A stretch of DNA of 60,923 nucleotides, the filler included, from Jimgerdemannia flammicorona (taxonomy: Eukaryota): the NCBI GenBank assembly GCA_003990765.1. It is 2 parts of 2 records of this genome, joined end to end, with 100 filler letters (N's around TTAATTAATTAA, not from the genome) between each part and the next. Parts side by side here need not be neighbours in the genome. Positions count along the whole stretch, not along the records: positions 1 to 30,428 come from RBNJ01000444.1; positions 30,529 to 60,923 come from RBNJ01000445.1. One strand, 5' to 3'. The notes beneath the pieces are model-generated. The model was not told where the DNA came from. It saw nothing but the letters and a program-made list of their open reading frames with translations, and did not search any database. A program made the translations under genes and the position numbers. Each line of letters opens with the position of its first letter. Within the stretch, counting starts at the first letter, position 1. This document shows positions 2,995-52,950 of the stretch, in pieces.

Positions 2995-3899
2995 TTTATC
3001 AGCAAGGTTGGCAGAGTGATCAGAGTTGGCAGAGATTCTTGGTTCGAGATCATATCATCATCAGAGGAATCATTGTCTTCTACTTCATCTTCATCAAATC
3101 AGATTATATTATAGACATCCTTTATGGCATATCTGACTTGGAGCATTTGCAGGATATAGTCATCAGGGTGCAGAAAGATTCTATCTGTAGTCTGGACATA
3201 CTTGAGATACTTGTGGTTGAGTTCTTGTATCATATCATCAATTTGGCCATAAGACAGAGTAGCAACCATTTTGGCAGTAGTAACTCGAAGGTAGAGAATA
3301 AAGGTGCTGTACTCATAAAAGAATTCTTGATGTTTGCGAGCAATGAGTTTCTGGTATTGAGATATCTGGATAATATCTGTATTATGATAGTATTCGACCA
3401 TATCTTCCAGGAGGTAGCCAATCTAGTAGTAGTTTGAGATTTGTCCAATTCAGTAGACTTCACTAAGTATGTTCAGAGTATTCCATTAGGCTTCTATAAA
3501 GTAGAGAGGTGCTAAGCTATAGATATTCATAAGGAGCAGAGGGGGTGTGGCTTAGTTGATAATAGCATTCCAAATGTCAGTACAGATGTGGTTATAGATC
3601 TTAGTAGTCATATTTGTATATGTTCAGAAGTTATGGTTGTTGTTTGTTTTGGTTCTCTGTTTTGACATATCTTGGTACTTGGTATATATATATTTGGTCC
3701 TAATTGATAAGATCCTGTTTATATAAGTCTTATATTCTATGACTTTATATTGACTCAGCTTTATGCACTGTGACTTCGGTTTGACTCAGCTTTGTAATCT
3801 TGCAGGTGATTTCCAGATTTGTTTAGAGGTTACATGTGATTTCAGTGGCTTGTTCAGAGGGTGACATGTGATTTTGGTGGCTTGGAGGTTGTGTGCTTA
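2995..3899 (-). mobile_element. Gypsy family B fragment (B0): 3' region and part of the LTR, including the best-preserved ORF3 (ATG 3611)
   Basis: Aligns to 11930-12560 and 26000-26293; 3800-3899 matches 27720-27800 downstream of the B2 chromodomain. Confidence 0.85.
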
Positions 3900-6800
3900 C
3901 AGGGTGAAACTTCTTAACTTTGAGAGTGATGTCTGGTTCTTGTTCCTCCTCATTATTGTTGTCAGCTTGAAGCTCTGGAGGCTGGTCAACTTCTTCAGCT
4001 TCCCTTTTTGCTTCAGCAACTTCTTGCTCATACTTTTGTTAGCAGATTTTCCTAACTTTACTAATATAGGACCAGCAGTCATTCAGGTGTTCATAGTAGT
4101 ACATTCTAGTACTATAGAGGTATCTTCTTTGAGAGGCATAGCTATTGATGATCTTATTGTACTACTGCTTATCTGTGAGCTTGAGTGTCTTGTTCTTATT
4201 CTTATTCTTATTCACCAAGTGCATAAAGACTTCTGTATCCTTTTTATCTTCTTTTTTTATGTCTGGTAGAACTCCTTTATAGACATTGATAGAGACTCAT
4301 ACCTTTCTTCCTCTATAGTTGATTTGCATCTTCTGGGCATTGAGATCAATGATGGCCTTGGCCTTATAAAGTCATTGGTTGCCAATGAGGATGTCATAGT
4401 TGGTGGCACTTATAATAATCATATCTACTGAGATGGTAGCTCCTCCAATCTTGATGGAGACTTCTTAGATCTTGCCAAGAGAGGTAGCTCATGTACTATC
4501 TGCTGTGATATAGACTATCTTGGTAGACTCTTCAATATCCCAGCCTAGGCAGTCAATTGTCTTCTTACTCATAAAGTATCCTTCAATACTAGTATCAATA
4601 ATAGCATTAAAGATATAATCTTCAATCTGATATAGGGTATAGGCTGATGTCTTATGCTGATCTTCAGATTCTTTATCTGAATCTTCTTGATTATCTTCTT
4701 ATATATTGTGAGCTTTGATAATCTTGTACTCTTGATTCTTAGCAATAGTTGCAAGTCCTACTCTCAACTGCTGTCTGAAGACAGAGACTTCAGCTAGTTG
4801 TCCAAAAGTAGCATTGACCTTCTATTCCTTGAGGTCCTTATAGATATCATACTGGTGGATCTTGGTCTTATACAGCTTCTGTTCTTTCTTGCTTTCACTT
4901 TCTTCTGAGACTAGAGTAGTATCTTCAATAATTTAGCAGATAGCTTCATATAACTCTATATCTTAATCAATCTCCTTGAGTTAGGTCTTGCTTTGAATAG
5001 TGATAGTTGAGATCTTCTTTGGTCTTCCAACTGACTTATAGTTGCTCTTCTTATCATAGGGCTTGAACCAGGTTCTGGCATCTTTAGTAATAGGGTAGAA
5101 TTTGGACTCCTTGTAGTATTCTTCATTATCAGTATCACCAATCTCCTCAATGACTACTATATTAGTTTGTTCTCTGGTTCTGGTAGCATTGCTTGGTTGG
5201 GCTTTGCATCTTGTTTTGATCATGTAACTCTTTGCATAGTGGCCTTCTTCTCTACATCTGAAGTATGTGATATTGCATTCTTCTATAACAGCTACAAATC
5301 TCTGTACTGATCTCCTGTTGGCACTTCAGACTTTTTTAACAACATCACTAAGATATGCAGTTATCTTTTTTTATTTTTATTTTTTATAGTTACTTGGACT
5401 CTGTCTTTATTACCAGTCTATGAATAAGTATATAATATCACTACCTACTATCTGATCCCCATAGGGGAGCCTCTCCCCACCCCTTCATGAATAAAGATCA
5501 CTCTCTCACCAATGACTCCAACTCTCCTACCACTCTGTCCACAGATTTTCTCCACCAAGCAGCACCTCCGACCCCTCTGCAGCTCCCAACCAAGCCACCA
5601 GCCTGTCAAGGTGTCCTCTATAAGTCTCTGCCACCATGAAAACCAGCTCCCCAAGCTCTATCACCTCCCATCCTCAAAAACAAATAACCAGTGACCAGCT
5701 AGCCCAACCCAAATAGCCAACACCCAGCCTAAGGTAATCCACTCCTTTCCTACCCCTCCTACCAATCGATCCCTCAAGTCCTCCCACCTCTCCCATACTT
5801 CATCTCTCCTATGCCTCACCCCCAAGTGGTCCCCAATGATATGCAGTTATCTTAGCAAACTGCTTAGTGAGTTCCTCCATTAGGTCAGCTTTGGCTATCT
5901 TGGGGGTAGGTGGGAATAGTTGTCTGTTTATAACTATAGCAGGTATGATACTGGTTGGCTTTGATAACTCTATCTTAATATCAGTTATTTTCTCCATTGA
6001 GTATTCAGCAGGGTGTCTGGCAGTATAATATCTCTGTACAAAGACCACTTTCTGGTCAAGAGTCAGAGCAGTTGAGGTAGACTGGATTGTTAGGGCAATT
6101 TCAGGGTAAACTTCTTTGAGGAAGATTGAATCAGCTATTTAGTTCTTGAGGTAGTCATCATAGTTAGCCAAGATAATTTAGTGGCAGATTTGGATATAGA
6201 ATAAGTTAGAATCTTCACTAAGTCTTTGGCAGATAGTGTTGAGTTGATTCTTAAGAGCTTGCTTGATATCTTTAGTATAATATATAGTTCTGAGGAAGGT
6301 CTTTATGTTAGTAAGTCTGGCTACACTAGTATTAACAATAGTAGCTGTATTGAACTTATCTCTGGCAGGTCCCCTGAGGCTGACTAGTAGAAGGGCCAAT
6401 TATATATCTATATTGAGGGCTCATATGATAGCAAATTGTTCAAAGTCTTTAATGAAGATCAGGATTGACTCTTCAGTAGTATATCTATAGAATGTAGAGA
6501 GATATATTTCCATCTTATCTTAAATTCTTGCAAGAGTGACTCTTGTAGTCAGGGTAGTTATTGTGGTGGTTATTTGTTTTTCAGCTTAAAAGTGAGAGAT
6601 TCATCTTGAATTATCAGTCAATGGGCACTAAGTTGTCATATAGTGGTCACTGAGTTCTTCAAATATATCAGATTCTCTCCAAGATATATCTCTTAGACTA
6701 ACCTCAAGTTTGTTATAAGCAAGTTCTTATTGGAGTATCTTTCTAAGGTCTTATAGTCCTCAAACTTCTTATCTTTAAACTGTCTTATTATCTCTTAGAT

Positions 6801-7470
6801 TGCTTGCATGGAATTGAGAGTAAGTGAACTGGAACTGACTTTATTTCAAAGGAAATACATAAGAGAAGTATTTATATAAAATATAATTCAATAGTTGCTA
6901 AAATATAAAGCTAAATATAAATTCCAATAACTAAATAAAATACTGGAATACAGAAAACTACAGTTGTCAGTATAGATTCCAGTGTTGGTACAGATGGTTG
7001 TACAAGTTCAGAGTGCTGATAAAATTTTGGTGGTACAGAAAAAGGATGCTGAAAGAATTCTGAGTTATAAAAGATCAGAATGCCAGTAGAAGGATTAACT
7101 GTTATATAGGAAAAGAATGGTGTATTTCATATATATCATATGAGATGATATCATTACCAATGATGTCATCATGTTTGGTAGTAGAGAGAACAAGGAGATC
7201 AGGGGCTCTCCAGTCTATGAGGTCCTCTTCTATAAAATAAGAGACAAATGTAGAGTCTTGGAGAGTTGCTACTACTGCAGTTTCTTGATTCTTCTTTTAT
7301 ATTCCTCAAGATATCTGTCTTGTAGTCTCAATGACTTATAGTTAGTCACTATGACTCATCTTGTAGCCTGGGTGAGTCATGCCATATGATCTTCTTATAC
7401 TCTGATCTAGTAATTTATAAGGAAAGACTGTCTTTTGTACTGATGTCATCATTCTGAGATCACTATTATA
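3900..7470 (-). mobile_element. Gypsy family A copy A1: 5' LTR (6634-7470, with internal deletion near 7265), PBS, gag, protease and Zn module; truncated just before the dUTPase core
   Basis: Colinear with 46770-50546; PBS remnant at ~6613-6630; interrupted by a LINE fragment. Confidence 0.9.
5368..5837 (-). mobile_element. 5'-truncated LINE copy (3' end of ORF2, 3' UTR, degenerate poly(A)) inserted in A1 gag
   Basis: Matches the 3' ends at 30530-30990 and 60430-60890. Perfect TSD GATATGCAGTTATCTT at 5352-5367 and 5838-5853. Confidence 0.95.
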
Positions 7471-8210: not shown

Positions 8211-8217
8211 TGCTGAC

Positions 8218-9406: not shown

Positions 9407-9439
<33 letters not shown>

Positions 9440-11399: not shown

Positions 11400-12547
11400 A
11401 CTAATCTAACTATACTAATAACTGTTAGACTATCTATAGATTTAGATACTGTCTGAGTATTCTTCAATGAGATCACTATCAATGATATTATCTCTAATGA
11501 AGTAGTTATCTAAAAAGAGCAGTTCTTGGATTATACATATCTTCTTATTTATTTATATAATAGTATATTGGAACCATATCACTGTTCTATAGGATAGTAT
11601 CATCTATCTCATATACTGAGTAAGGTGTTGGTGGGCAGAGAAGAGGTATATTGTCTTCACTTTTATCAGATTTGCTATCTGCATATCTTTGGTAGATTAT
11701 AGTACTATATATTATAGAGTTATAGTAAGCTAATAGCTATGGTTTGTTTTATGTATTTATATTCAGAAGATAGAGTTGTTGGTTTAATCTCAAGAGTTGT
11801 CTAGAGATATAGATTGTATTCTCTGGTCTCTTTATTATAGTTGAAGTAATTAGGTATAAATGTAGATTGATACTTATACTAGTGGTCATTGTCTCAATAG
11901 ATCTTATAGATAGTTATAAACTGTTGTAAGTTTATTAGCAGAATTGGTGAGATAATCAGAATTGATAGAGATTCTTAGCTAGAGGTCATGTTGGTATTGG
12001 AGGAATTATTATCTTCTATATTATCATTATTGAACTGAATTATATTATAAATATCTTTTATGATATATCTAACTTGGGGCATTTGTAGGATATGATTATC
12101 AGGATAAAAAAAGAATCTATCTATAGTTTGAATATACTTAATATACATATAGTTGAGTTCTTATATCATATTATCAATTTGGCCATAAGACAGAATGACA
12201 ATTATTTCAGTAGTAGCAACTTGGAGATAGGAAATAAAGGTGTTATACTTGTAAAAGAGTTCTTAATATTTATAGACAATGAGTTTCTAATGTTAAGACA
12301 TCTGAGTAATATTTATATCATAGTGATGTTCAACTATATCTTCAAAGAGATAGTCAATCTAGTAGTAGTTTGAGATTTGTCTGATTTGATAGACTTTGCT
12401 AAATATGTTTAGAGTATTTTATTGAGCTTCTATGAAATAGAGGAGTACCAGGCTATGGATATTCATAAAGGGTAGGAGAGGTGTGGCTTGGTTGATAATA
12501 GTATTCCAAATGTCAGTATAGATATGGTTGTAGATCTCAGTAGTCAT
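11400..12547 (-). pseudogene. Family B accessory ORF3 (decayed), largely inside the LTR
   Basis: Homologous to 3611->2995 (MTTKIYNHICTDIWN...YYxIGYLL...IARKHQEFF...); the 3' end is approximate. Confidence 0.6.
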
Positions 12548-15900: not shown

Positions 15901-18338
15901 GTCAGATGATTTATGAATAAATTCCCGTTCAGAGGTTGAGCTTTATACTAACTTATAAGAATTCCAATAAGAGGTTGTAGCTAGATGAGAAAGCATTTTA
16001 AAGTAAAATTGGATTATAAACTACTACTATTAAGTTATAAGAGAGTTACTTATTAAAGTATTATTACATAGTTCTGGAAGAGTTTTCTAAAAGTTCTGAA
16101 TATTCTGGAAGACTATTTTCTTTAAGATTAAGATTAATTTCATAGAGTATATTCTCTATGCTTATTGATTTCAAGATTAGATTGATATCTCAACTAAAGT
16201 CTTTTTTCAGACTAGTTCTAGATGTTTGGAATTTTTCATATTTTAGGAAGTTTAAGAAACTAACACTAGCTTAATTGAATTAGCATATTACTATAGATAA
16301 TACTTAATTAGAAAATTTTAGAATTTAGTTAGAAGTGAGATCTAATAGGATGTAGATTTACTTAAGAGTAGTTTGTGAGTTATTAGATAGATTTATATAC
16401 TATTCATAATATTGCTATATTAGTAGATAGTTGTGTGAAGGGATATTTGTATAAGGGAAAGTGTTTATCTGGGTTCTTATCTATTCTTATCTATTTGAGT
16501 CTGAGTTTCTAAGATCTGGAAGAGTGGGTATTTATACTAATGAGAAGCTATCTAAACTATACTAAATATAGATATAGTACTTAGTACTTTGATGAGTCAG
16601 AATGCAGTCATATAGTACAAGTGTGAACTGATATATTAAGAGATTTTCTGACTACTGAGTCAGTATACAATATAATAGTGACCTCAGAATAATGACATCA
16701 GTATAGGAGACAGCCTTTCCTTATAAGCCATCAGATCAGAGTATAAGAAGATTATATAGCATGACTTACTCAGACTACAAGATGAGCAATGATAACTAAC
16801 TGTGAGTCATTGTGACTATAAGATAGATATCTTGAGGAATATAAAAGAAGAATCAAGAAACCACAGTAGCAGCAATCCAAACAAAGCTCACAGAAATAGT
16901 TCAAAAGACTTACCACAAATAAAATGTCTGCTGCTCACCAAACCTTAAGATCCAGGAACCACTAAGGCCTCTTAGTCTAGAAAAGGATATTCTAAGACAT
17001 CTGAAGAGCCATAAGGATCTACACTACAAGGACTCCTAGTATCAATCTGGGTACTGGTGACCCTTATCATTATATTCTCTACTGTTGAGAAATGGAAACA
17101 AGAATCACTATTGCTACCAAATGTCTCCAGATGTGGTAAGAATATGAAATTCTGCTGGAAATTCTCTCAAGTTAGCCCTCAAGAGCTATAAGATACCACT
17201 CTTATAGATATATATGAAATAAGGATAGCCAAGAAGATTCATTAGATCTTCAGGCATACACCATGGTCAATTTCCAACTTAGAGTATACCAGAGTCTCAG
17301 ACTTCAGAGATCTGTCAGCTTGTTATATCAATATACTAGAAGTCATAATAGCTATAGAGGTCCAGTCTACTATCACCCTCAATAGTGATAAGATAGAAGA
17401 GTTCTGGTATTCCATCCTCCAGAACAATTCAGATCAGTTTCTGCAAGGATTGATCTCAGTATTCCAAGGCCCCAGCATCCAGGTTAGACCTCTCCAAGAC
17501 TCCACATTTGTTCCTTATTTTGTAGAAGAGAATGTCATAGATTGGAGAGCCCTTGCCACTGCCAAATGTGATGATGTCATTAGTGATGATACATATCATC
17601 ACACACAACATATATGAAATGTACAATCTATGCAACAAGATAGACAAAATATACATAGATCTTATCTCCTTCAGTAATGATAAGAATGAAACCCCCATGG
17701 TTCTGAACATTCTACTTTAAAGTTCTTGGTGATACCAAATTCTGCCAGCATTCTTTTCTAGTATAACAATTAATCCTTCTACTGGTATTCTGATCTTATA
17801 TAACTCAGAATTCTTCTAGCATTCTTTTCCTATACTACCAAATTCTACCAGTACTCTGAACTTATGCAACAATACTAGAATCTGTACCAATAACTATAGT
17901 TTTCTATGTTCTAGTATTTTATTTGGTTATTGAAATTTATACTTAGCTTTATATCTTAGCAACTATTGAATTATATTTTATATAAATACCCCTCTTATTT
18001 CCTTCAAAATAAAGTCAGTTCTAGTTCACTTACTCTCAATTCTATACAATTAATATAAGAGATAATAAGACAGTTTAAAAATAAGAAGTTTGAGAACTAT
18101 AAGATCTTAGGAAGGTACTCTAATAAGAACTTGCTTATAAAAAACTTGAGTTAGTCTAAGAGATATACTTTGAAGAGAATCTGATGTATTTGAAGAACTC
18201 AGTAACCACTATATGACAACTTGGTGCCTATTGACTGGTGATTCAAGATGAATCCCTCACTTTCAAGCTGAAAAATGAACAACTACCACAATAACTACCC
18301 TGACTACAAGAGTTACCCCTGCAAGAACTCAAGACAAG

Positions 18339-23586: not shown

Positions 23587-23597
23587 CAGTATGTCCC

Positions 23598-24960
23598 ATG
23601 ATTAGCAAGCAATCTGTCTGGACCATTCTCTAAGGGATACAGCACTAGCAACTACTCATCTATGAGATTTTCAAAGCTAGAGGAGTTTGAACTATCAACT
23701 AATTAGTCAAGATCAGAATCAGGCCCTTACTTTATATAAAGAGAGTAACTCTTCACCATTACACCAAAATATATAGGAAAGATGCCAGCCTATAAATACT
23801 ACTTTTTAACCCCCTGCCAGAGGTTATGGGATCAGCAAATTTTTCAGGACTAAACCAATGAATAAGGACATTCAAGAAGATCCTTATTCAAGAGAAAGAT
23901 GTAATGATGATTTCAGAATAATAACATCAGTATGGGAGACAGGCTTTTCTTATAAGCCACTAGATCAGAGCACAAGAAGATTATATAGCATAACTCACCC
24001 AGGCTACAAGATGAGCAATAATGACCAATTGTGAGTCATTGTGACCACAAGACAGATATCTTGAGGAATATAAAAGAAGGATCAAGAAACCACAGTAGCA
24101 GTAATCCAAACAAAGCCTACAGAAATAGTTCAAAAGACTTACTACAAACAAAATACCTACCACTCACCAAACCTCAAGGTCTAGAAACCACCAAGGCCCC
24201 TCAGTCTAGAAAAGGATAATCTAAGACATTTAAAGAGCCATAAAGACTTACACCATAAGGACTCCTAGTGTCAACCTGAGTACTGGTGACTCTTATCATT
24301 ATATTCTCTACTACTAAGAAATGGAAACAAGAATCACTATTGCTACCAAATACCTCCAGATGTAATAAGAATATAAAATAGGAAACCTTCTCTGTCAGAA
24401 ATTCTCTCAAGCCAGCCCTTAAGAGCTATAAGATACCACTCCCATAGATATATATACATGAAATAAGGACAGCCAAGAAGATTTATCAGATCTTCAGGCA
24501 TGCACTATAGTTGATCCCCAACTTGAAGTATACTAGAGTCTCAGACTTTAGAGATCTGTTAGCCTGTTATATTAATATACTAGAAGCCATAATAGCTACA
24601 GAGGTTCAGTCTACTATCACCCTCAATAATGATGAGATAGAAGAGTTCTGATATCTCATTCTCTAGAAAAACTCAGATCAGTTCCTACAAGGATTGATCT
24701 CAACATTCCAAGGCCCCAGTATCCTGATTAGACCTCCTCAAGACTCTACATTTGTTCCTTATTTTGTAGAAGAGAATGTCATAGATTGGAGAGCCCCTGC
24801 CACTGCTGAATATGATGACATCATTGGTAATAATATCATCTCATATAATATATACAAAACACATGATCTATATGACAAGATAAATGAAATATTCACAGAT
24901 CTTATCTCCTTCAGTAATGATAAGAATGAAGCCTCTATGGTTCTGAACATTCTGTTATAA
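23598..24960 (+). pseudogene. A2 accessory ORF3, starting after integrase and reading through the PPT into the 3' LTR
   Basis: Frame MISKQSVWTIL...PLPEVMGSANFSGL...YLEEYKRRIKK...AKKIYQIFRH...IDWRAP...LISFSNDKNEASMVLNILL. Interrupted mainly by stops that revert to CAA/CAG/CGA, plus small indels. Confidence 0.7.
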
Positions 24961-26293
24961 AGTTCTTGATGATACCAAATTCTGTCAGCATTCTTTTCCT
25001 ATGTAACAGTTAATCCTTCTACTGGTATTCTGATCTTGTATGACTCAGAATTCTTCCAGTATCCTTTTCCTATACTACTGAATTCTATCAGTACTCTGAA
25101 CTTGTGTAACTATCTATACCAATACTGAAATGTACTGACAACTGTATTTCAGTATTTTATTTGGTTATTGGAATTTATATTTAGCTTTATATCTTAACAG
25201 CTATTGAATTATATTTTATATAAATACCCCTCTTATTTCCTTCAAAATAAAGTTAGTTCTAGTTTACTTACTCTTAATTCTACACAAGCAATCTAAGAGA
25301 TAACAAGACAGTTTAAAGATAAGAAGTTTGAGGACTATAAGACCTTAGGAAGGCACTCCAATAAGAACTTGCTTATAATAAACTTGAGTTAGTCTAAGAG
25401 ATATACTTTGAAGAGAATCTGATATATTTGAAGGACTCAGTAACTACTATATAACAATAGTTATATCATATAAGACTAATCTAACTATACTAATGACTGC
25501 TAGGCTATCTATAAATTTAGATGCTATCTGGATATTCTTCAATAAGATTACTATTGATGATATTATCTCTGATGAAATAGTTGTTTAAGAAGTGTGGTTC
25601 TTGAATTATATCTCCTTGTTCATTCATATAGTAGTATGTTGAAACCATATCACCATTCCATAGAATAATATCATCTATCTTATATACTGAGTAAGATATT
25701 AGTGAGCAGAGAAGAGATGTATTATCTTCACTTTTATCAGATTTGCTGTCTGCATATCTTTGATAGGTTATAGTACTATATGTATATTATAAGATTATAG
25801 TAAGCTGGTAGTTGTGGTTTATTTTGTTCATACTTAGAAGGTGGAGTTGTTAGTTTGATCTTAAGAGTTGTCTGGAGATATAGATTGTGTTCTCTAGTCT
25901 CTTTATTATAGTTGAAGTAATTAGATATAAATACAGATTGATACTCATATCAGTGGTCATTGTCTCAATAGATCTTATAGGTGGTTATGAACTATTATAA
26001 GTTCATTGATAGAGTTGGTAGAGTGATCAGAGTTGGCAGAGATCCTTAGCTAGAGGTCATATCTTCTGCTTCATCATTATTAAACTAGATTATATTATAG
26101 ACATCCTTTATGATATATTCAACTTAGGGCATTTGTAAGATGTGGTCATTAGAATAAGAGAAGGATCTGTCTGTAGTTTGAACATACTCAATATACTTAT
26201 AGTTGAGTTCTTATACTATATCATCAATTTGGTCATAGAATAGAGTGTTAACCATTTCAGTAGTAGTAACTTAGAGGTAGAGAATAAAGATAC

Positions 26294-29200
26294 TGTAAGA
26301 GGGTTACTTATTAGAGTAACCATTATATAGTTCTAGAAGAGTTTTCTGAAAGTTCTAGATATTCTAGAAGACTATTTTCTTAAGGTTAAGATCAATTTCA
26401 TATAGAGTATGTCCTCTATACTTATTGATTTCAAGATCAGATTGATATCTCAACTAAAGTCCTTATTTAGACTAGTTCTAGATGTTCAGGATTTTCTGTA
26501 TTTCAGAAAGTTCAAGAAACTAAGACCAGCTTAGTTGAATTGGCATATCACTACAGACAATACTCAATTAGAAAATTTTGTGATAAGGTTAGGAGTGGGA
26601 CCTAATGAGGAGCAGATTTACTTAAGAGTGGTTTGTGGGTTATTAAATAGGTTTATTTGCTATTCATGATATTACTATACTAGGAGTAGTTATAAAGAGA
26701 TATTGTGGGAAAGTGTTCAGAAGTTATATTCAGATTGTTCTGTATATGTATTTAAGTCTGAGATTCTGAGGTCTGGAGGAGGGGATATTTATACTAGTGG
26801 GAGGCTATCTAGACTATACTAAATATAGATATATTACTTAGTATCTTACTGAGTCAGAATATAGTTATATAGTACAAGTATGATCTGATATATTAAGAGA
26901 TTATCTGACTGCTAAGTCATTTCACAGTTATGTCATATAAGACTAATCTAACTATATTAATGACTACTAAGCTATTTATAGATTTAGATACTATCTGGAT
27001 AGTCTTTAATGATATCACTATTAATGATATTATCTCTGGTAAAGTCTGAGCAGTTTTCTGACTTCTGATATCATTAGTTTCAAAGGTGTTGTCACCTCTA
27101 TCTCTTGTAAAATTAAGGCTATCCTTAATGGTAGTGGTTGTATAAGAATAATAGGTCTTGGTTCTCTTTTTTTTTTTTAGACTGCTGGTGCATTTGTGAG
27201 GACTGGCCATTCTTGTCTAGAGCAAGAGCTCTCATTATCATGGCTAGGGGTTCAAACCTCTCAGAAATGATATTTTCTGTAATCTAAGACAATTTTTAGT
27301 AGTAATATCTGTCATATAGATGGGCTTGAGATTGGTTTTGATAATGTTAGCTTTCTTGAGTTCAGATGAAGTATCTGTCATTCTCCAATAGAAGTGATAC
27401 AGATAGAGTAAATAGAGTTGTTCAAATGCATTTTGCTTCTACTAAGTGATGAGATTTTATATAGTTATAGTATATCTTAATCTTGAGTTGATAAGTATAG
27501 TTTGTAAACCTTTAATGGATGAGATAGAGTTCTTCTTATCTCAGTTTGAGTTTGGTACTTTAGTTTCTTTTTATAATAGTACAATATACCAAAACTAGTT
27601 ATGAGGTTCAGGGTTAGTCTTATAGTTATAGTACTTCTTCTGGTATTCTTGTGTCTTGGCAGTAGGTTCTCATATATGCTGGTGTATTTTGTATAATTAG
27701 GTGATCTCTTCAGTAACTTGTTTTATAGTCTCACATGTGATTTCCAAATTAGTTCTGAGAGTAATATGTGATTTCAGTAGCTTAGAGGTTATATACTTAT
27801 AACTCTCACCTTCTTAGTTTTTGACATCCTCATTGAGGCCTTCTAATTTGATCTAGTGTTATTATACTATTTGGATAGTTCTTGTGGCTGTGTTTATTGA
27901 GAATTTGTTCAACTTTGTATTCTTCTTGGTCATTAATAATGACAGATGTAGGTGGTTTTACAGTTCAGTTCAGAAATATGTCTCAGACTTTCTGGGATAA
28001 GGGTCTAACATGGCTGTCAACTTTGGAAAAGTCTTTTTTGAGATTTTTGAATTCTTCTTTAGATGGGCAGATAGAGATAATAAAGAGAGAACATTTCTTG
28101 ACCAATTTCTTGAACTATAGCTTATTGATATAGGTGATCTTCAGTTCAGAGTTACTAGAACTGAGTGGGTCTTTTTTGCCTTATAATTTGAAATTGTAGT
28201 GTTCTTTCTTGATAGTCAGAGAATGGTTTACCCAATCAATCATAAGGTTCTCTTATTTTAACTATAGGGTCCCAAGGATGATTTTATTGTCAGGAAGTGA
28301 TATAATTTAGAGGGTAACATGTACTCAGTCTAATTCAGAAGAGTAGGTTGTAGACTTCTTTGCTAATAACATGAGAGATTCCATCAGCTATAGCAACTGC
28401 TTGAGTCTGTTATACTGGAGAGGTCAGAACCTTGAGTCTGTTGGCTGTTTCTTTATTGATGAAGTTATCTGAGGCACCACTGTCTATCATAATCTTGACA
28501 GGTACTTGATTGACAAAAGCTTGGAGTGTAAGCAGTTTGTCTGATCTAATGGTAGTAATTTCTATTATAGGAGCTTTCCTTCTATTGGTTTTTCTTTAAA
28601 CCAGTTCATTGGTACAAAAGAAGTAATTATCAATTATTCAAAAAGAGTACATTCTAATGCCATAAGAGCATTGGCCACTTAGTATAAATCTATCTTTGAT
28701 TTTCTTGTAGAATTGTTCTTCCTTATTCATCATAGGTTAAGTTGGGACCTTATTTGATGAGCCAAATCCTCTAGATTCTCAAATGGTAGGCAGTAGTTCA
28801 GGGACTTTCTTGACTGTCAGAGTTGACTCAATTTTTTCAAATAGAATTTGGGCAATATAGAAACCAGTGGGGATTTTGAAGGGTGTCCAACTATAGTTTT
28901 GGATGAGGACAATGATTTTGTCTATATAATTCTCATCAATGACTCCTCCTTCTACTGAGAGTCCTTTCAATACTAGGCTGCTGTAACAGCATATTCTTTC
29001 AACATGTCCTTCAGAGATTTGGATGCTGATTCCTGTGTAGACTTGCTTGATTTATCAGTTGAAAACTATAGCTTCTTTGGCTATATATGTAGGTCATATC
29101 TAGCTACTTTTTGACTTCTTTTGGTTGGGGCCTTAGCAGTTAGCCTTAACTTGACAAAGTTCAATATCTTGGTAGTCAGATTATTGAGGTAGTACAGAGT

Positions 29201-30528: not shown

Positions 30529-30595
30529 TTTTTAAAGTCATTTGGACTCTATCTTTATTATCAGTCTATGAATAAGTATACAATATCACCACCCA

Positions 30596-34256: not shown

Positions 34257-34286
34257 AATGAAATACAGTTTGTTCTCAGTTGGTCT

Positions 34287-40400: not shown

Positions 40401-42272
40401 AGCTTAGACAAAAGAAGATACATCTCTTTTAAGTTAATTGCTTTAAGAGTAATATACTCTAACAAGTATACTACCAACTAGTCAAACTTCTTAAGAATCT
40501 CATCCTAGAACCAGGAGAGCAGACTATCTTTGAAATATTTATACTACCAGATTCCAGAAATCTCTTCTTTAAATCAAATGAAGATCTCAGAAACCTTAAT
40601 ATAGAAAGATATATATTTTCTAATAAGATGAACTCTATATATTCTTGAGCAACTAACAAAAGCTAAAATAGCTTCATTTTACTAAAAGGAATCATCATAG
40701 GCTATCTGGTGTCTTATCTTAATTAGATATATAGAGAAGTCTATAAACTAAATCTATTGAGAAATAGTAAAAAGTCTTAGAAGAAAGAAATGACCTCTCT
40801 GTGACTCAGGATAAAGTAAAGCCTTTTATTAATTTTAGAGAAGAACTGATATCTCAGCAATAGTAGTAACTAGTATAAATATCAGAATATCTTTACTAGA
40901 GACTATAGCAATATGCTATACAATTTACAGTATAAATATAGGAAATACAACACCCATCTGATAGAAACCTTATAGAATACCCCACTACCTAAAGATATTT
41001 AAGAAAGAACATATTTACAATAGAGTTATTTGACTCTCTACTAGCTTTTAGATTAGTCCTATACTTATTGTACTAAAGAAAAAAGAATGGAGACTTTATA
41101 TAGATTATAGAAAACTCAACTCAGTAATAAAAAAAAAAAAGCTTATTCTTTACTCCAAATTGATGATCTCTTATATTAACTACAAAATATCAGATACTTC
41201 AGTAGTATAGATCTCAAGAACATTCAAAAGACAGCCTTTCTTGCCCTAGAAAAACTGTTTAAATATCTCTAACTACTCTTTAGACTCTGCTATACTCTCT
41301 CAACCTTTCAGAGAATGATAAACTCAATCTATACTCTTCTGATCTACTATTGTCTAATTATCTATATAGATGATCCCAATATTTATTTAGTGAACTTCAA
41401 AGAATATTTACAATATTTATCAGCTTATCTAAAAGAACCACCTGAGACTTAATACTAAGAAGTACTACTTTGGAAAACAGAAACTCAAATTTCTTAGATT
41501 TATAGTCTCTAAAAAAGGAACTCATATAGATCTAAAGAAAACTAAGAAGATCAACAACTGGCCAGTACTCAAAACTCCAAAAGAAGTACTATTATTTCTG
41601 ATACTAGTATTTTACTATAGAAGATTTATTAAGAATTTTATTCAAATTATCACACTAATCTGAACCTTTTTTAAGAAAGAACTACTATATATAAATAAAA
41701 AGAACTATAAGAACTAACCTTTAAAGAACTCAAGTACTACATAACTACTTATATAACCCAACTTGCAGAAGCTATTTATCTTATATATTATCACATAGTG
41801 GTTGCTGAGTCCTTCAAATATACCAGATTCTCTTCAAGATGTATGTATCTCATAGACTAACTTAAGTTTGTTATAAGCAAGTTCTTATTGGAGTGCCTTC
41901 CCAAGATCTTATAGTCCTCAAACTTCTTATCTTTAAACTGTCTTGTTATCTCTTAGATTGCTTGCAAGGAAGTGTGTATATTGTACTGAGAGGAACTGAC
42001 TTTATTTCAGAGGAAATAAGAGGGGTATTTATACAAAATATAATTCAATGGTTGCTAAGATATAAAGCTAAATATAAATTCCAATAACTAAAACTACTAA
42101 GTTCCAGAGCTGGTACTGATGGTTGTACAGGTTCAGGATGCTGGCATTATTTAGTATTATATCAAAATGCCGGTGCTGGAACAATTTTGCATCACCTCAG
42201 AATACCAGTGCTGGCATTATCCAGTGTTACATAAGAATACCAGTGCTGGTATTATTCAGTATAATAAAGAAC

Positions 42273-43618
42273 TTAGAGCAGAAAGTTCAGGACCATGGGA
42301 GCTTCATCCTCGTTATCATCATCACTGAAGGAGATGAGATCCATGGACTCATCATATAGGTTGTACATTTCACATATGTCGTGTGGGATGACATCATCAT
42401 GTTCAGCAGGGAAATCGGGAACAAGATCTGGAGCTCTCCAGTCTATGAGGTTCTCTTTCACAAAATAGGGAATGAATGTGGGATCTTGGGGAGGTCTAAC
42501 CTAGATGCTTGGGCCTTGGAATACTGAGATCAATCCTTGCAGGAACTGGTCTGGGTTGTCCTGAAGGATAGGGTGCCAGAAGTCTTCTACTTCTTTGCTG
42601 TTGAGGGTGATAGTAGACTGGGCTTCTGTAGCCACCCTGGCTTCTAGTACATTAATACAGTGAGATGACAGGTCTCTGAAGTCTGAGACTCTGACATACT
42701 CCAAGTTGGGGATCGACCATAGTATATGCCTGAAGATCTGATGGATCTTCTTAGCTGTCCTCATTTCACGTATGTCCATGGGAGTGGCATCTTGTAGCTC
42801 TTGGATGCTGGCCTGTGGGAACTCCTGGCAGAGGAGGTTTTCTATTTCATACTCCTGCCACATTTGGAGGCATTCGGTAGCAATGGTGATCCTTGTTTCC
42901 ATTTCACGGCAGTAGAGAATGAAGTGATAAAGGTCTGCAGTACCCAGGTTGACACTAGGAGTCCTTCTTGAGTGGGTCCTCATAGCTCTTCTGATGTCTT
43001 GGAACATCCTTTCCTCGACTAAGATACCTTGGTGATTCCTTGACCTTGAGGTTTGGTGTGCAGCAGGTATTTTGTTTATGGTAAGTCTTTGAGCTATTTT
43101 GGGATTGGTGGTTCTTATTTGTTGCTACTACTGCAGTTCCTTGATTCTTCTTTTATATTCTTCAAGATGCTTGTACTATGGTCACAATGACTCACAGTTG
43201 GTCATCATTACTCATCTCATATATGTACCATATGATCTTCTTGTGCTCCGATCTGGTGGCTTGCAAGGAAAGGCTGTCTCCTGTGCTGATATCATCATTC
43301 TGGAGTCACCATTACATCTTCCTCCTGAATAAGGATCTTCCTGAGCATCCTTATTCATTGGTCCAGTCCTGAAAAATTTGCTGATTCCATAACCTCTGGC
43401 AAGGGATCGAAAACTGGTATTTATGGGCTAGCATCTTCCCTTTGTATTTTGGCATAATGGTGAAGGGTCACTCCCTTCATATAGAGCAAGGGCCTGATTC
43501 TGATCTTGATCAATCAGTTGACAGTTCGAACTCTTCTGACTTTGAAAGTCTCATAGATGAGTAGTTGTCAGTGCTGTATCCCTTAGAGAATGGTCCAGAC
43601 AGATAGCCTGCTGGTCAC
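42273..43618 (-). pseudogene. A3 accessory ORF3, mostly within the 3' LTR; its LTR part is duplicated at 49488-50312
   Basis: ORFs 42501..43007 and 42273..42461 are one frame separated by a single TAG; homologous to 23598-24960. Confidence 0.75.
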
Positions 43619-43629
43619 AGAACATGCTG

Positions 43630-46600: not shown

Positions 46601-48887
46601 TTGGCCAGACTGCTCCTGGTCTTGATAATTCCAGCATGGTTTTCTGGTAGCTTGACTCCAATTCCAGTGCCAAGTAGGGTGGTGGTTTGTGGTTCAAGGG
46701 TAGTATCTTGAATGCTGGTAAGGTCCATTCCTATGGCTCCTTCAGTCTTATATTCTGGGATCTTGGCTTCAGGGTGAAACTTCTTGACCTTGAGGGTGAT
46801 GTCTGATTCTTGTTCCTTCTCATTGTTACTGTCAGCTTGAAGCTCTGGGGGCTGGTCATCTTCTTCAGCTTTCCTTTTTGCTTCAGCAGTTTCTTGCTCA
46901 TGTTTCTATTGGTGGATTTTCCTGACTTCACTGATACAGGACCAGCAGTCATTCAGGTGTTCGGAGCAGTACATCCTAGTACTATGGGGGCATCTTCCTT
47001 GAGGGGCATACCTATCAATAATCTTGTTGTACCACTGCTCATCTGTGAGCTTGGGTGTCTTGCTCTTGTTCTTGTTCACCAAGTGCATAAAGACCTCTGT
47101 ATCCTCTTCATCTCCTTTCTCCATATCTGGTAGGACTCCTTTGTGGACATTAATAGAGACTTGTACCTTTCTTCCTCTGTAGTTGATCTACATCTTCTAG
47201 GCATTGAGGTCAATGATGGCCTTGGCCTTGTGAAGCCATTGGTTGCCAATGAGGATATCATAGTTGGTGGCACTTGTAACAATCATGTCTATTGGGATGG
47301 TAGCTCCTCCTATCTTGATGGAGACTTCACGGATTTTGCCAAGAGGGGTAGCTCATGTACCATCTGCTATGACATAGACCATCTTGGTGGACTCTTCAAT
47401 ATCCCAACCTAGGCAGTCAATTGCCTTCTTACTCATGAGGCATCCTCCAGCACCAGTATCAATGATGGCATTAAAGATACAGTCTTTGATCTGGTAGAGG
47501 GTATAGGCTGATGTCTTGCGCTGATCTTCAGATTCTTCACCTGAGTTCTCAGATTCTTCCTGTGCATTGTGAGCTTCTACAATCTTATACTCTTGATTTT
47601 TGGCAGTAGTTGCAAGTCCTACTCTCAACTGCTATCTGAAGGCAGGGACTTCAGCTAGCTGTCCAAAAGTGCATTGACCTTCTGTTCCTTGAGGTCCTTC
47701 TAGATATCATACTGGTGAATCTTGGTCTTGCACAGCTTCTGTTTCTTCTTGCTTTTGCTTTCTCCTGAGACTGGAGTAGTGCTTTCTATGATTTGGTGGG
47801 CAGCTTCATCTAACTCCATGTCTTGATCAATCTCCTCAGGTTGGGTCTTGCTTTGGATAGTGACAGCTGGGGTCTTCTTTGGTCTTCCAACTGGCTTACT
47901 GTTGCTCTTCTTGTCATAGGGCTTGGACTGGGTTCTGGTACCTTTAGTGGTAGAGTAGAATTCAAGCTTCTTGTAGTATTCTTCATTATCAGTGTCACCG
48001 ATCTCCTCAATGACTACTGCATTGGTTTGTTCTCTGGTTTTGCTAGTATTGCTTGGTTGGGCTTTGCATCTTGTTTCAGTCATGCAACTCTTTACATAGT
48101 GGCCTTCTTCTCTACATCTGAAGCATGTGATATTGTGTTCTTCTGTAGTAGCTGCAAATCTCTGCACTGGTCTCCTGTTGGCACTTCGGACTTCTCTAAC
48201 AACATCACCAAGGTATACAGTCATCTTGGCAAACTGCTTGGCAAGTTCCTCCACTGGGTCAGCTTTGGCTATCTTGGGGGTAGGTGGGGTTGGTTGTCTG
48301 TTTATGACTGTGGCAGGTAAGATACTAGTTAGCTTTGATGGCTCCATCTTGATGCCAGTTATTTTCTCTATTGAGTGTTTGGCAGGGTGTCTGGCAGTCC
48401 AATATCTCTGTGCAAAGACCACTTTCTGATCAAGGGTCAGTGCAGCTGGGGTAGACCAGATTGCTAGAGCAATTTTAGGGTGAACTCCTTTGAGGAAGAT
48501 TGAATCCGCTATTTGTTCCTTGAGGTGGTCATCATAGCCAGCCAAGACAATCTGGTGGCAAATTTGAGTATAGAATAAGTTGGGATCTTCACTAAGTCCC
48601 TGGCAGATAGTATTGAGTTGATCCTTGAGAGCTTGCTTGATCTCTTCGGTATAATATGTTATTCTGAGGAAGACCTTCATGTTGGCAAGTTTGGCTGCAC
48701 CAGCATCAGCAATGGTAGCTGCATTGAACTTGTCTCTGGCAGGTCCTCTGAGGCTGACTGGTAGAAGGGCCAATTGAGCATCCACACCAAGGGCTCATAT
48801 GGCAGTGAATTGTTCAAAGTCTTCAATGAAGGTCAGGATTGACTCTTCAGTAGTATATCTATAGAATATGGGGGAATGCATTTCCAT
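43630..48887 (-). pseudogene. A3 gag-pol: CCHC (CFRCREEGHYVKSC), protease (AIIDTGA), Zn module, dUTPase, RT (YIDD), RNase H, integrase
   Basis: Clear domain motifs in ORFs 47700..48785, 47353..47628, 46114..46728, 45141..45719 and 44104..44493. Confidence 0.97.
46380..46800 (-). CDS. dut: Trimeric dUTPase domain within the A3 polyprotein
   Basis: Motifs I-V: AIGMDL, KTRSSLA, GRVIDSDYTGEI, RIGQML, RGEQGFGSTG. Confidence 0.93.
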
Positions 48888-51527
48888 CTTGTTTTGAATT
48901 CTTGCAGGGGTGACTCTTGTAGTCAGGGTAGTTGTTGTGGGGGTTGTTCATTTTTCAGCTTGAAAGTGAGAGATTCATCTTGAATCACCAGCCAATGGGC
49001 ACCAAGTTGTCACGTAGTGGTTACTGAGTCCTCTAAATATACCAGATTCTTTTCAAGATATATCTCTTAGACTAACTCAAGTTTATTATAAGCAAGTTCT
49101 TATTGGAGTGTCTTCCCAAGGTCTTATAATTCTCAAACTTCTTATCTTTAAACTATCTTGTTATCTCTTAGATTGCTTGCAAGGAAGTGTGTATATTGCA
49201 CTGAGAGGAACTGACTTTATTTCAAAGGAAATAAGAGAGGTATTTATACAAAATATAATTCAATGGTTGCTAAGATATAAAGCTAAATATAAATTCCAAT
49301 AACTAAAACTACTAAGTTCCAGGACTGGCACTGATGGTTGTACAGGTTCAGGATACTGGCATTATTTAGTGTCACATCAAAATGCAGGTGCTGAAACAAT
49401 TTCGCATCACCTCAGAATATCAGTACTGGCATTATCCAGTATTACATGAGAATACTGGTGCTGGTATTATTCAGTATAACAAAGAACTTAGAGCAGAAAG
49501 TTCAGAACTATAGGAGCTTCATCCTCATCATCATCATCACTGAAGGAGATGAGATCCGCAAACTCATTGTATAGGTCATGCATTTTGTGTATGTTGTACG
49601 GAATGACATCATCACCAATAATATCATCATGTTTGGTGGGGAAATCAGGAACAAGATCTGGAGCTCTCCAGTCTATGAGGTTCTCTTCCACAAAATAGAA
49701 AATGAATGTGGGGTCTTGGGGAGGTTTAACCTAGATGCTTGGGCCTTGGAATACTGAGATCAATCCTTGCAGGAACTGGTCTGGGTTGTCCTGAAGGATA
49801 GGATGCCAGAAGTCTTCTTCTTCTTCACTGTTGAGGGTGATAGTGGACTGGACTTCTGTAGCCACCCTGGCTTCTAGTGCATTGATACAGTGAGATGACA
49901 GATCTCTGAAGTCTGAGACTCTGACATACTCCAAGTTGGAGATCAACCATAGTGCATGCCTGAAGATCTGATGGATCTTCTTAGCTGTCCTCATTTCGCA
50001 TATATCCATGGGAGTGGCATCTTGTAGCTCTTAAGTGCTGGCCTGTGGGAACTCTCGGTAGAGGAGATTTCCTATTTTGTACTCCTGCTACATTTGGAGG
50101 CATTTGGTAGCAATGGTGATTCTTGTTTCCATTTCATAACAATAGAGAATGAAGTGATAAAGGTCTGCAGTACCCAGGTTGACACTAGGAGTCCTTTTTG
50201 AGTGAGTCCCCATAGCTCTTCTGATGTCTTGGAACATCCTTTCCTTGACCGAGATACATACCTTGGTGATTTCTTAACCTTGAGGTTTAGCATATAGCAG
50301 GCATTTTATTTATGGTAAGTCTTTGAGCTATTTTGAGATTGGTGGTTCTTGTTGGTTGCTGCTACTGTGGTTCCTTGATCCTTCTTTTATATTCTTCAGG
50401 ATGCTTGTACTGTGGTCACAATGACTCACAGTTGGTCATCATTGCTTATCTCATATGCTATATGATCTTCTTATACTCCGATCTGGTGGCTTACAAGGAA
50501 AGACTGTCTCCTGTATTGATGTCATCATTCTGGGGTCACTGTTATAATATAGATATCTCTAAAGATGGCCTTAGAGTATTTCTAGTCTAAAAAGAATCTG
50601 ATCAATAGTACTATATGATAACTTATATAAGCTGAGTTATCAATAAATAGTAAATCAACTATGATAGTACTAAATTGAAATGTCTTGTAGTCTATAGGCT
50701 ATCATTCTGTTTAAGTACTATTTTATCAAAAAAAGATTTACTTTGAAAACTAATTATACTGCTCTTAAATAGATATTTAACTATAAGGAACCTACTGGAA
50801 TTCTTATCTACTAGATCTCAATATTATAAGATTATAAAATTGCCATTATTCATAAAGCAGAGAAAGCTCACAACAATGTTAATATAAGTACTTTTCTGAT
50901 AAATCTAATAAATTAGAATAAGGATATACCTCAGAACTATATCTTAAAAGAGTTTTTATAACTACTAAAATACATAAAGACCTCATCTGATAAAAATATC
51001 AGAAAGTCTACCAAGGACAGATAAATATAGAAAATAAGCTATAAATAATATACTAATACTAGCTCTATCTTAGAATATAAGTCAGAGATATATGTACTTA
51101 AAAAATATAATATCTGTCAGAAGTATCAAGAAAAGAACTATCAGATACTATTATAATTAATTATACCACTAGTCTATATTTTTCAAGGATAGAGAGTAAA
51201 TATTATTAGATCTCTACCAGTTATACTAAGGAGAAAAAAATATATCTTAGTATTTATAGAATATCTGACCAAATGGCCCAAAGCTTTTTCAATAAATTAC
51301 TAATATCTTGATTATTGTGAGCCTCCTCCAAAACTTCATACTCAGATATAAACTCTCAGAAGAACTTATCTCAGACTGTGGTATAGAATTTATTAATAAG
51401 TTAATTATAACTTATATAGATTTACAGGATCTACTTAAAATAAACTATATCATATTATCCTCAAATTAATAATATAATAGAATGAATCAGACCATCAAGA
51501 AAGAACTTGCCTGAGTTAATCCTACTA

Positions 51528-51991
51528 TATAACAGTTCCAGTTTCTTTAAGAGGAAGTGGCTAAATCTGGAAGTTCTGGTTGGTCTAAAGTAGCTCAAAG
51601 AGATACTTGAAGGTTCAAGTGTTCTTGAAGGATTTCTGGAAGAAAATATTCTGAGCTTTATTTAGGCAGAGAACAAGGATATTTATATATAATCTAAAAG
51701 AAAGATCTAGAAGGATCTTGGAAAGAAAGAGAAATGCCAAGAAATAGGTTCTTAGCAAGCTGACTAATACTATTCTACAATGTTCTGAAAGGTTCCATAA
51801 CTAGCTGAGATAAGATACTTGGCACCAAGGAAAGACAAAAATGTTCTAGTAGTATCTGGGTGCTGAGAGAGGATTTCTAAGCAAGTAGAAGGTACTGGAA
51901 TATAGTAGAATATTTAAGAAATGATAAGAAAAAACTGACTAAAAGATGCAAAAAATATACTAAGACTAAATATGACTGTGAAATTGTTACA
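51528..51991. mobile_element. Solo LTR (464 bp) of another family, inserted in the element C integrase
   Basis: Termini T(A)TAACAGTTCC...GAAATTGTTACA; 5-bp TSD TACTA (51523-51527, 51992-51996); removing it restores the host frame VNPTN(W)DLCL. Confidence 0.9.
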
Positions 51992-52436
51992 TACTAACTG
52001 AGACCTCTGCTTATCTGAAATTCTATAGAAAATTCAAAACTCCCTTATAATCTCTATTAAACAAAAGTTATTTAAGATAATGTTTACTAAAAAAAACTAG
52101 AACTACTGACTATGAGAACCTCAGAGAACTCCTCAAAAAGGCAGAACAATTGCAAAATCAAGCTTGAGTTTAGTTAATCAAGACTCAGAATAAGTAGAAA
52201 AAGTACTATAATAAAAAACAGAAGAATTAGAAGATTAAATTGAAAATTAAGTCCTTATTTGGAGAAGCAGAATCAAATCTAACTTTATTACCAAATTAGA
52301 GTCTAAATGGAAAGAATCTTATCTTATATATAATATTAAAGAAACTAGTATCTATATAAGAAGTATAAATAAATATATATATCTTAAAAACCCCAGTCTA
52401 TATCATCTATCTTAAGATATATCTCTTCTCAATATA

Positions 52437-52950
52437 ATGAACCAGAAGATTGACCAGTATCTTCAGACTCTTGTTCTTAGTTTCCTCTAAGCTCTGCCAG
52501 TTCCTCTATTTCAGTTCTGTGAAGTCTAAGAAATCTATCTCCAATAGATCTAAATATACCAGAAGAACCTCACTTTAATACATATAACAGTTGCTTCAGA
52601 CTCACTAACTACAGGTCTACTATATTATTAGACTATAACTGAAGCTTCAGAACAAGTATATATCAAAAATACTACAGGTCTCTTCTGAAGGAATATTCTA
52701 GTATCTGATAGACTCTATACTATATATACAAGCAAAACCCCTCAGCCCTTATCTAAGCTAAGTTTAGTCTGATTGATATATATATAATAGACAAATCTAG
52801 CTATCTACCAGAGGATCATCAATCAAGTTGAAATTCTGTTCTTTGAAGAAAAAAAAGAATTCTTAGAATAGAGTAATCTAGATATAGAAGAAGATGATAG
52901 TATAGGCATAGATACTAAAGATACTTATAGATACTAAAATAATAACTAAA
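52437..52950 (+). pseudogene. Family C accessory ORF3 between integrase and the 3' LTR
   Basis: MNQKIDQYLQTLVLSFLxALPVPLFQF...GLLYY...VSDRLYT...PSALI...acidic tail DIEEDD. Confidence 0.55.

Follow-up and report, generated by a model that had tools for sequence, protein, structure and literature searches.

The DNA analyzed here, a stretch of 60,923 nucleotides (nt) from Jimgerdemannia flammicorona (assembly GCA_003990765.1), which is called the window, is a nest of long terminal repeat (LTR) retrotransposons according to self-comparison and regional Pfam scans. Three Gypsy families, A, B, and C, are present; Pfam coverage of the window is made up of the regional scans and a list of open reading frames (ORFs) and not of a complete six-frame scan. 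The subject of this analysis is an accessory gene found at the 3' end of families A and B. The LTR of family A holds a genuine protein gene of ~265 codons, while family B carries an ORF that starts ahead of its LTR and extends into it, and the two represent an uncharacterized, non-env accessory family common to two of the three Gypsy families. An earlier note on this DNA had described an extra sense ORF after pol, "ORF3", as one family in three lineages; this stands for A and B, but is not confirmed for C. The family A elements, their LTRs, the copies of the gene, and the signals around it are the following.

16670-25457, + strand: A1 element, LTRs 85.8% identical
16670..18219, + strand: A1 5' LTR, from the LTR pair
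23899..25457, + strand: A1 3' LTR, from the LTR pair
41788-50546, - strand: A2 element
41788..43314, - strand: A2 3' LTR, 1527 nt, start TGTAATGG, end ...GTGACA
49007..50544, - strand: A2 5' LTR, from the LTR pair and its termini
3895-7473: A3, truncated A copy with a partial 5' LTR, from self-comparison
42273..43070, - strand: A gene in the A2 3' LTR, best-preserved copy, 265 codons plus stop, LTR positions 245-1039 of 1527
49488..50264, - strand: A gene in the A2 5' LTR, 3 internal stops, frameshift near the N-terminus
16924-17720, + strand: A gene in the A1 5' LTR, ATG kept, 3 frame pieces, 8 internal stops
24153-24960, + strand: A gene in the A1 3' LTR, ATA for ATG, 2 frame pieces, 11 internal stops
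7093..7272, - strand: A gene fragment in the partial 5' LTR of A3, from a profile match
43150..43157, - strand: TATA-like motif TATAAAAG, LTR position 158, ~87 nt upstream of the A-gene start, consensus match only
42001..42033, - strand: second TATA-like box TATAAATA (LTR position 1282) and AATAAA (1309), downstream of the gene, consensus match only

Family A shows all features by which a Ty3/Gypsy element is recognized, i.e., direct LTRs, a polypurine tract, a primer-binding site, gag, and a pol region with protease (PR), reverse transcriptase (RT), RNase H, and integrase in this order. The domains found by Pfam in A2 are gag (zinc knuckle), PR, dUTPase (E 3.5e-27), RT, RNase H, and integrase, and the A2 LTRs are 89.4% identical by self-comparison (41788-43309 / 49007-50539). 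The LTR begins immediately 3' of the polypurine tract AGGAGGAAGA, and the primer-binding site TGGTGCCCATTGG follows the LTR. As the gene follows the polypurine tract, it is contained entirely in U3 and is copied to both LTRs. It was found in 4/4 full A LTRs and in one LTR fragment, on the same strand as gag-pol. Its start lies 244 nt inside the LTR and the gene is, thus, not located between pol and the 3' LTR. The position after pol given in the earlier note (23598-24960; 42273-43618) has to be corrected in this regard, since only ~300 nt of that span are pol-LTR spacer, the rest being part of the 1.53 kb LTR; in A2, the span includes the polypurine tract and extends past position 43314, where the LTR starts. 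The start had been set ~550 nt too far upstream, and these first ~550 nt have stops in every frame. Neither are the stretches open ORFs. The best frame of the A2 span has 9 stops among its 448 codons, and the A1 span has at least 23; the sole long open stretch in the A span comprises 207 aa (43124->42501, A2 3' LTR). In the best-preserved copy, the start ATG is mutated to ATA and one internal TAG is present, and this copy is matched by the profile of the relatives with 532.7 bits. The start context is AAAATG, with ATG retained in two of the four copies and ATA in the other two. The motif TATAAAAG is invariant across all four A LTRs; the second TATA box together with AATAAA would constitute the main promoter and the poly(A) signal of the element.

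All copies of the accessory gene in the window are dead, each of them being broken by C->T or G->A stops, lost start codons, or frameshifts. The repeats bear hypermutation resembling repeat-induced point mutation (RIP), in that C->T and G->A changes are in excess, CpA is the preferred context, and TpA/ApT is high (0.76-1.12). Transitions account for 1202 of the 1377 differences between A1 and A2 (87%); they are mostly in CpA context, and the C/T sites most often precede A. The observed/expected ratio of CpG is 0.00-0.08 in A1, A2, B1, and C, which are the four Gypsy copies measured, and 0.20 in a GC-rich RT element of the window. Because the loss of CpG is strong, deamination other than RIP may also contribute. 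Hypermutation of this kind makes a filamentous fungus the probable host.

Relatives of the A gene were obtained in two ways. A search with the frame of the A2 LTR yielded five proteins among 243 candidates (P0003-P0007; 60-82% identity, 161-271 aa), and a profile search of 1.84 billion representatives yielded five, four of which were new; P0010, P0011, and P0012 are 46, 40, and 29% identical, respectively. P0004, P0010, and P0011 begin with MPAAR, MPALR, and MPPIR at one alignment position, and six of the eight aligned relatives terminate at ...LN(F/I)LL, while P0011 has a variant motif and continues beyond it. All length differences are in-frame, long blocks such as WNPILQDNPDQFLQGLISVFQGPSIQVRPPQDPTFVPYF are conserved, and the stops in the window copies of both A and B coincide with R, Q, or W of the relatives. 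Fixed differences between A1 and A2, defined as sites that agree between both LTRs of each element but differ between the elements, are distributed over the three codon positions as 33:9:45 within the ORF (p=1e-5) versus 27:34:24 (p=0.39) in the LTR outside it, i.e., second positions are depleted inside the ORF only. The ratio of nonsynonymous to synonymous substitution rates (dN/dS) was determined by the Nei-Gojobori method from codons identical in both LTRs of each element (136/265). In the frame of the ORF it is 0.21; the two alternative frames give 0.66 and 1.90, and the downstream controls 0.93, 1.06, and 0.37. The A gene is, therefore, under purifying selection, and because of the value of 0.21 the neutral dN/dS, which had been named in the earlier note as a ground for abandoning the idea, does not apply to family A.

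These data also bear on the view that the ORFs are not genes, the frames being open by chance in non-coding U3 or spacer DNA and the database proteins stemming from automatic annotation of LTR fragments. It would account for the broken state of every window copy, for the relatives residing on contigs of 778-1625 nt under no other name than 'hypothetical protein', and for the lack of a domain or fold match. Proteins of 29-46% identity, however, retain frame, start, and conserved blocks, and the low dN/dS is confined to this frame as is the depletion of second positions to the ORF; the view is extremely improbable and is considered largely refuted.

The ORF of family B differs from the A gene in its position relative to the LTR. 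The B copies are given below.

16035->12258, - strand: internal region of B1; 3' LTR at ~12258->10741, 5' LTR in two parts at 26313->25458 and 16666->16035
30422->26296, - strand: B2, from self-comparison
3654->2995, - strand: B3, a 660-nt fragment adjoining the truncated A copy
11894..12547, - strand: B ORF in B1, starting with MTTEIYN ~290 nt before the B LTR start (~12258) and extending into U3
~2970..3611, - strand: B ORF in B3, 5 internal stops in 205 codons; similarity to B1 stops at 2995, followed by unmutated GC-rich DNA
26010..26318, - strand: B ORF, C-terminal part only, matching profile positions 94-203; located where the B1 5' LTR begins, immediately behind the end of the B2 LTR

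The start MTT(K/E)IYN is common to B3 (3611) and B1 (12547). Seven internal stops occur within the first 205 codons of the B1 ORF, which, like the five in B3, do not agree with the open ORFs of the earlier note. The sole intact B relative is the database protein P0008 (128 aa), which has 75% identity to the B ORF and the same start; a second, alignment-based search for B relatives returned P0008 and nothing further. The stretch 26318->26010 matches the B profile at positions 94-203 only, and the B LTR therefore begins mid-ORF, the first ~95-100 codons being internal sequence and the remainder U3. With the LTR boundary at this position, only the 3' copy is complete. The B ORF is likewise not confined to the region between pol and the 3' LTR, since it begins before the LTR and enters it, and the U3 boundary relative to the gene is ~535 nt apart between A and B. 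Upstream of the B1 ORF, RT is present just as an N-terminal stub. B1 and B3 carry the ORF; the 3' end of B2 lacks it. The differences between B1 and B3 are distributed over the codon positions as 55:29:60 (p=0.003), which is weaker evidence for coding than that obtained for A.

In the Botrytis element Boty, an additional gene, brtn, is encoded in antisense orientation, as reported in the accessible part of a review of such ORFs (PMC7264820), and the coding strand of the B module might correspondingly be the antisense strand. In B3 the complementary frame contains 2 stops versus 5 on the sense side, and in B1 the numbers are 8 and 7, respectively; an open frame of 222 aa is present at 2769-3437 (+), and the skew over codon positions is symmetric and cannot separate the two frames. 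Nevertheless, antisense coding is very unlikely, considering that the sense frame has a relative with the same start, P0008, and matches the A family, that antisense frames in A have 10-24 stops, and that no Pfam match was obtained for the antisense ORF, for which no search for relatives was made.

The relation between the A and B proteins had been derived in the earlier note from a gapless match over 31 aa. The two peptides are present, TAKKIHQ... at 42758->42666 (-), with its first seven residues also at 49988 in the other A2 LTR, and IARKHQ... at 3344->3252 (-). As judged from the window letters, the match is at chance: with 7 identities it reaches a BLOSUM62 score of 9, a better ungapped 31-mer arose in 300/300 shuffles, and local alignment of the A2 LTR with B3 gives a score of 43 versus 32.8+-5.1, which is equalled by 15/300 shuffles and, thus, also at chance level. 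The same register does become significant when unmutated relatives are used. A profile of eight A-type database proteins, containing no window sequence, matches P0008 with 16.3 bits (E 2.6e-7 as a single comparison), aligning profile positions 19-140 with P0008 residues 7-126, i.e., 120 collinear residues. This score is reached by 0/1000 shuffled P0008 sequences (mean -0.67+-1.37), reversed P0008 scores 0.2 bits, and the best non-A match of the profile in the six-frame window 2.8 bits. Separately, the close and the distant halves of the A family yield 6.8 and 7.9 bits; therefore, the signal adds up. The program hhalign relates the A profile to P0008 alone with E 3.8e-4 over 117 columns. In pairwise comparisons of P0008, the scores with P0003, P0010, and P0011 are equalled by 4, 2, and 6 of 1000 shuffles, those with P0004, P0005, and P0012 by 53, 132, and 643. 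The register is AKKIHQ.F...IP.L...LS of A with ARKHRELF...IPRL...LS of B, preceded by YEIG..L and YQIGRLL, respectively, and is the one of the earlier note. On the strength of these profile comparisons, the N-terminal domains of ~120 aa of the A and B proteins are homologous, which is visible only via the unmutated relatives; of the C-terminal halves, acidity is the only common feature.

Family C was examined in the same manner. Its parts are as follows.

~36388-41787 and 50547-54600, + strand: family C element, halves separated by A2
36853-37480 and 52977-54163, + strand: C LTR pieces, from DNA comparison
52437..52950, + strand: "ORF3" of the earlier note, the spacer that separates C pol from the C 3' LTR (start at or before 52977)

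Membership of C in the ORF3 family cannot be confirmed. The 171 codons of the stretch include 11 internal stops, and none of the frames is distinctly open (12, 15, and 16 stops with the terminal one). The motif VSDRLYT...YKQNPSALI, quoted in the earlier note as a weaker match, has its halves in different frames (52701, 52727) and would require a frameshift; pairwise alignment and the B profile are at chance level for C. With the A profile, 0.9 and -0.5 bits are obtained in two frames, equalled by 4/500 shuffles (frame 2) and 22/500 (frame 0). Two short matches to the most conserved A block were found, namely NQKIDQYLQTLV to qDnpdqfLqgli and SPIDLNIPEEPHF to ppirvrvpqdptf. Their cores, DQYLQTLV facing DQFLQGLI and PIDLNIPEEPHF facing the PQDPTF block, are collinear, in different frames, and spaced ~15 residues wider than in A; with 0.5 and -1.7 bits they score below several unrelated window matches (up to 2.8 bits), and they would cover only the C-terminal half of the A protein. 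It is doubtful, then, that all three families carry one ORF3 family with C too mutated to score. The dUTPase domain of C and its 540-nt spacer between pol and LTR would fit with such a constellation, and the failure of C to score is uninformative, because mutated, bona fide B copies of the window also score near zero.

How A and B came to share the gene may be judged from the remainder of the elements. A dUTPase domain is present in all three families, at 46350-46770 in A2, 20372-21364 in A1, ~28750-29090 in B2, and ~40030-40290 in C, so that the independence implied by "three different lineages" was overstated in the earlier note. In A it is located between PR and RT, in B2 before PR (E 1.8e-15). 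In C it lies upstream of a DSG motif and RT, a placement read by eye. Because all three families carry this domain, the shared gene can be attributed to vertical descent at least as readily as to exchange. Transfer of the module between unrelated Gypsy lineages by recombination or capture would be in line with the different domain order (PR-dUTPase-RT in A versus dUTPase-PR-RT in B), with the different placement of the gene relative to the LTR boundary, and with the B module (12589->11931) having different flanks in B1 and B3 and being absent from B2. On the other hand, the A and B proteins are ~20% identical (117-119 columns) versus 32-44% in the few alignable gag-pol segments; because the accessory proteins are no closer than gag-pol, nothing points to a recent transfer. 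The LTRs and spacers of A, B, and C have no DNA similarity at E<=1e-3, and the dUTPase common to all three families is an uncommon feature. Exchange is, therefore, unlikely; of the "shared or exchanged module" of the earlier note the sharing by A and B holds, while exchange fits less well than descent.

The protein itself would consist of an N-terminal domain of ~120 aa common to A and B, a central block strongly conserved in A, and an acidic tail. Net charges of the C-terminal third range from -9 to -21 overall; the acidic region claimed for all three families is evident in A (-16 to -21) and B3 (-11), but weak in C (-7). The proteins were rightly described as not env-like: no 19-residue window with transmembrane-like hydropathy occurs in A or B, the maximum Kyte-Doolittle mean being <=1.05 in the A relatives and 1.26 in B3 by a hydropathy scan without a dedicated predictor. 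P0003 and P0004, the closest relatives, have 9-10 K+R among their first 40 residues, and more distant ones only 4-6. An AlphaFold2 model of P0003, based on eight sequences, has a mean predicted local distance difference test score (pLDDT) of 50.7, a predicted template modeling score of 0.43, and a helical core with pLDDT 64-79. Going by this model, the protein looks soluble and mostly helical, with an acidic tail. The A profile has no match in the gag and pol of the window. The Pfam entry ATG5_HBR appeared with 2/8 A relatives (best E 0.088) and was taken as noise.

Retroelements are able to capture host sequences (PMC7264820, accessible part), and the gene might be a transduced fragment of a host gene. 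This origin is most improbable, since library searches, in which the 'longer' length class was not included, returned no relative >342 aa and no named host family, and since every full A LTR of the window and two families of elements carry the gene.

Taken together, A and B are rather probably distantly related, dUTPase-bearing Gypsy elements that have inherited a sense accessory gene at the 3' end, the product of which may act in trans on expression. In intact elements, expression of the gene would originate in the 3' LTR region or, by means of its own TATA motif, the AAAATG start, and the downstream AATAAA, in any A LTR. The protein might then act in the nucleus and promote expression of its own element, a step that is proposed with reserve. 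An activator or adaptor using the acidic tail would be the leading guess, and a role in the handling of unspliced RNA or in countering silencing would be nearly as likely; the transactivator, silencing suppressor, or movement factor suggested in the earlier note are likewise conjectures. In a much wider version, each A LTR would be a self-contained protein gene, whose TATA box, AAAATG start, 265-codon ORF, and poly(A) signal all precede the promoter of the element itself, and LTRs, even solo ones produced by recombination, could express a trans-acting factor for a clade of dUTPase-bearing fungal Gypsy elements that includes the B and C types and in which the U3 boundary has slid. Such a factor could, for example, activate LTRs or blunt host silencing; this wider version is quite unlikely.

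Several results weigh against the inherited, trans-acting gene. Concerning function, Pfam gave 0 matches at E<=10 with seven ORF3 stretch queries; a PDB sequence search gave 0 matches for the A profile and three, all at E >= 1.1, for P0008; Foldseek against PDB with the low-confidence model of P0003 had a best E of 0.69 and none at E<=0.001; and the top scores of 0.88 and 0.83 in the ESM Atlas led to no family. P0011 and B do not share the arginine-rich N-terminus, and the expression signals of the A gene are consensus matches only. Concerning the link between A and B, the library-wide search with the A profile returned A-type proteins only, BLASTP of P0004 with P0008 found nothing significant (E 27), and the window B copies score 0.4 bits (B3; 69/1000 shuffles) and -1.3 bits (B1; 346/1000) with the A profile. 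When the mutated window copies are part of the B profile, hhalign gives E 0.7, or E 0.069 with a richer A profile (4/300 column shuffles). As to coding, context-dependent hypermutation may mimic part of the codon-position skew, which for transversions alone is 8:3:8 and not significant, and the complementary frame of B3 is the more open one, as stated above. Only 10 relatives are known, without genomic context, and a protein library admits open copies only, which creates an ascertainment bias.

Accessory genes in or overlapping U3 are familiar from retroviruses, with sag of mouse mammary tumor virus (MMTV), nef of human immunodeficiency virus (HIV), and bel/tas of foamy viruses as examples. 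The A gene resembles these in occupying U3 of the 3' LTR, and a trans-acting role would be a further likeness. It differs in having no Pfam family and in belonging to a retrotransposon without env; its own promoter within the LTR is a consensus match only. No similarity to Sag, Nef, or Bel/Tas was found by Pfam, PDB sequence search, or Foldseek with the low-confidence model. Among fungi, brtn was reportedly described by Zhao et al. in 2011 as an additional gene of Boty-like Gypsy elements in Botrytis and Sclerotinia. Both brtn and the gene described here are extra genes near the 3' end of a fungal Gypsy element to which no function has been assigned, but brtn is antisense in Boty and the present gene is sense; the comparison is one of descriptions, not of sequences.

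Plants and animals have supplied most of the known extra genes of LTR retrotransposons, the majority of which have no assigned function. Sense and antisense additional ORFs of plant elements have been reviewed by Vicient & Casacuberta in 2020 (PMC7264820). According to the accessible part of this review, the aORF-3S or env-like class (Athila, Bagy2) comprises extra ORFs on the gag-pol strand at the 3' end, which are present in most copies of a family and are mostly of obscure function, and in all of this the A/B gene is similar. It is dissimilar in lacking a transmembrane segment and a signal peptide and in having a probably fungal instead of a plant host; moreover, aORF-3S is situated between pol and the 3' LTR, whereas the A gene is wholly in the LTR and the B gene crosses its start. 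A model for one possible function is CERV of the Gypsy-type element Cer1 of Caenorhabditis elegans, a non-env third protein that is nuclear, acts on the RNA of its own element, and is required for export of the genomic RNA, as described in the accessible part of PMC10309623. CERV is made from a spliced mRNA of a nematode element, while the A/B gene is known from sequence alone. In the accessible part of Novikova et al. 2010 (PMC2864245), dUTPase is found at variable positions of pol in fungal Gypsy elements (Postia, Phanerochaete, and Tuber Tmt1), which is also the situation in A, B, and C, and a figure legend mentions, for some fungal elements, an 'add. ORF' of obscure function. In the literature searched, which was not exhaustive and did not cover some figures and supplements, no account of a sense gene within a fungal Gypsy LTR was found.

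The A/B family is, accordingly, a conserved, selected, and unannotated protein family of fungal Gypsy elements. The position of the gene relative to the LTR differs between the two lineages and provides a natural example of how a U3 boundary can shift over a gene, and a whole gene inside the A LTR would give coding potential to solo LTRs. Heavily hypermutated copies conceal such genes, the homology of which is seen only through unmutated relatives. For annotation, the lesson is that 'long LTRs' of ~1.5 kb in fungi may harbor genes.

As to the further architecture of the window, the junctions of the nested insertions are clean, at 16666/25458 for A1 in the B1 5' LTR and at 41787/50547 for A2 in the RNase H region of C. 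The flanks of the interrupted B1 5' LTR are contiguous in the B1 3' LTR at 11381/11383. Family B is an internally deleted derivative on the - strand with dUTPase, PR, and the N-terminus of RT only. The Gypsy features of C are dUTPase (E 5.2e-9), a weak RNase H match, and an integrase-like translation judged by eye. In B2, a chromodomain-like stretch (..EEYKVEQILNKH..; ~27700-27973, -) follows the RT N-terminus; it is seen in translation, with no Pfam match, and suggests an internal deletion fusing RT to the integrase end. The next ~750 nt past this stretch are unlike B1 and do not contain the B ORF.

A GC-rich (51%) element is present in two inverted copies of ~88% identity, at 30529-36388 (-) and 55130-60892 (+), with a fragment at 5367-5836. 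Its GC skew is strong, its coding sequence includes a reverse-transcriptase domain (RVT_1, E 6e-20), and no hypermutation is visible in it; a piece of 470 nt of it interrupts A3. Two runs of 44 N, at 30429-30472 and 30485-30528, adjoin the start of the element where the two records of the window are joined, and are probably due to an assembly gap at a repeat boundary. The left flank of the window (1-2995) has a GC content of 54-57%, a CpG observed/expected ratio of 0.66, and short peptide-like tandem repeats; its ORFs of 221-268 aa have no Pfam match. The open 222-aa frame complementary to the B3 ORF crosses the junction at 2995 into this unmutated GC-rich DNA, and it is precisely at 2995 that the hypermutated repeat block ends.

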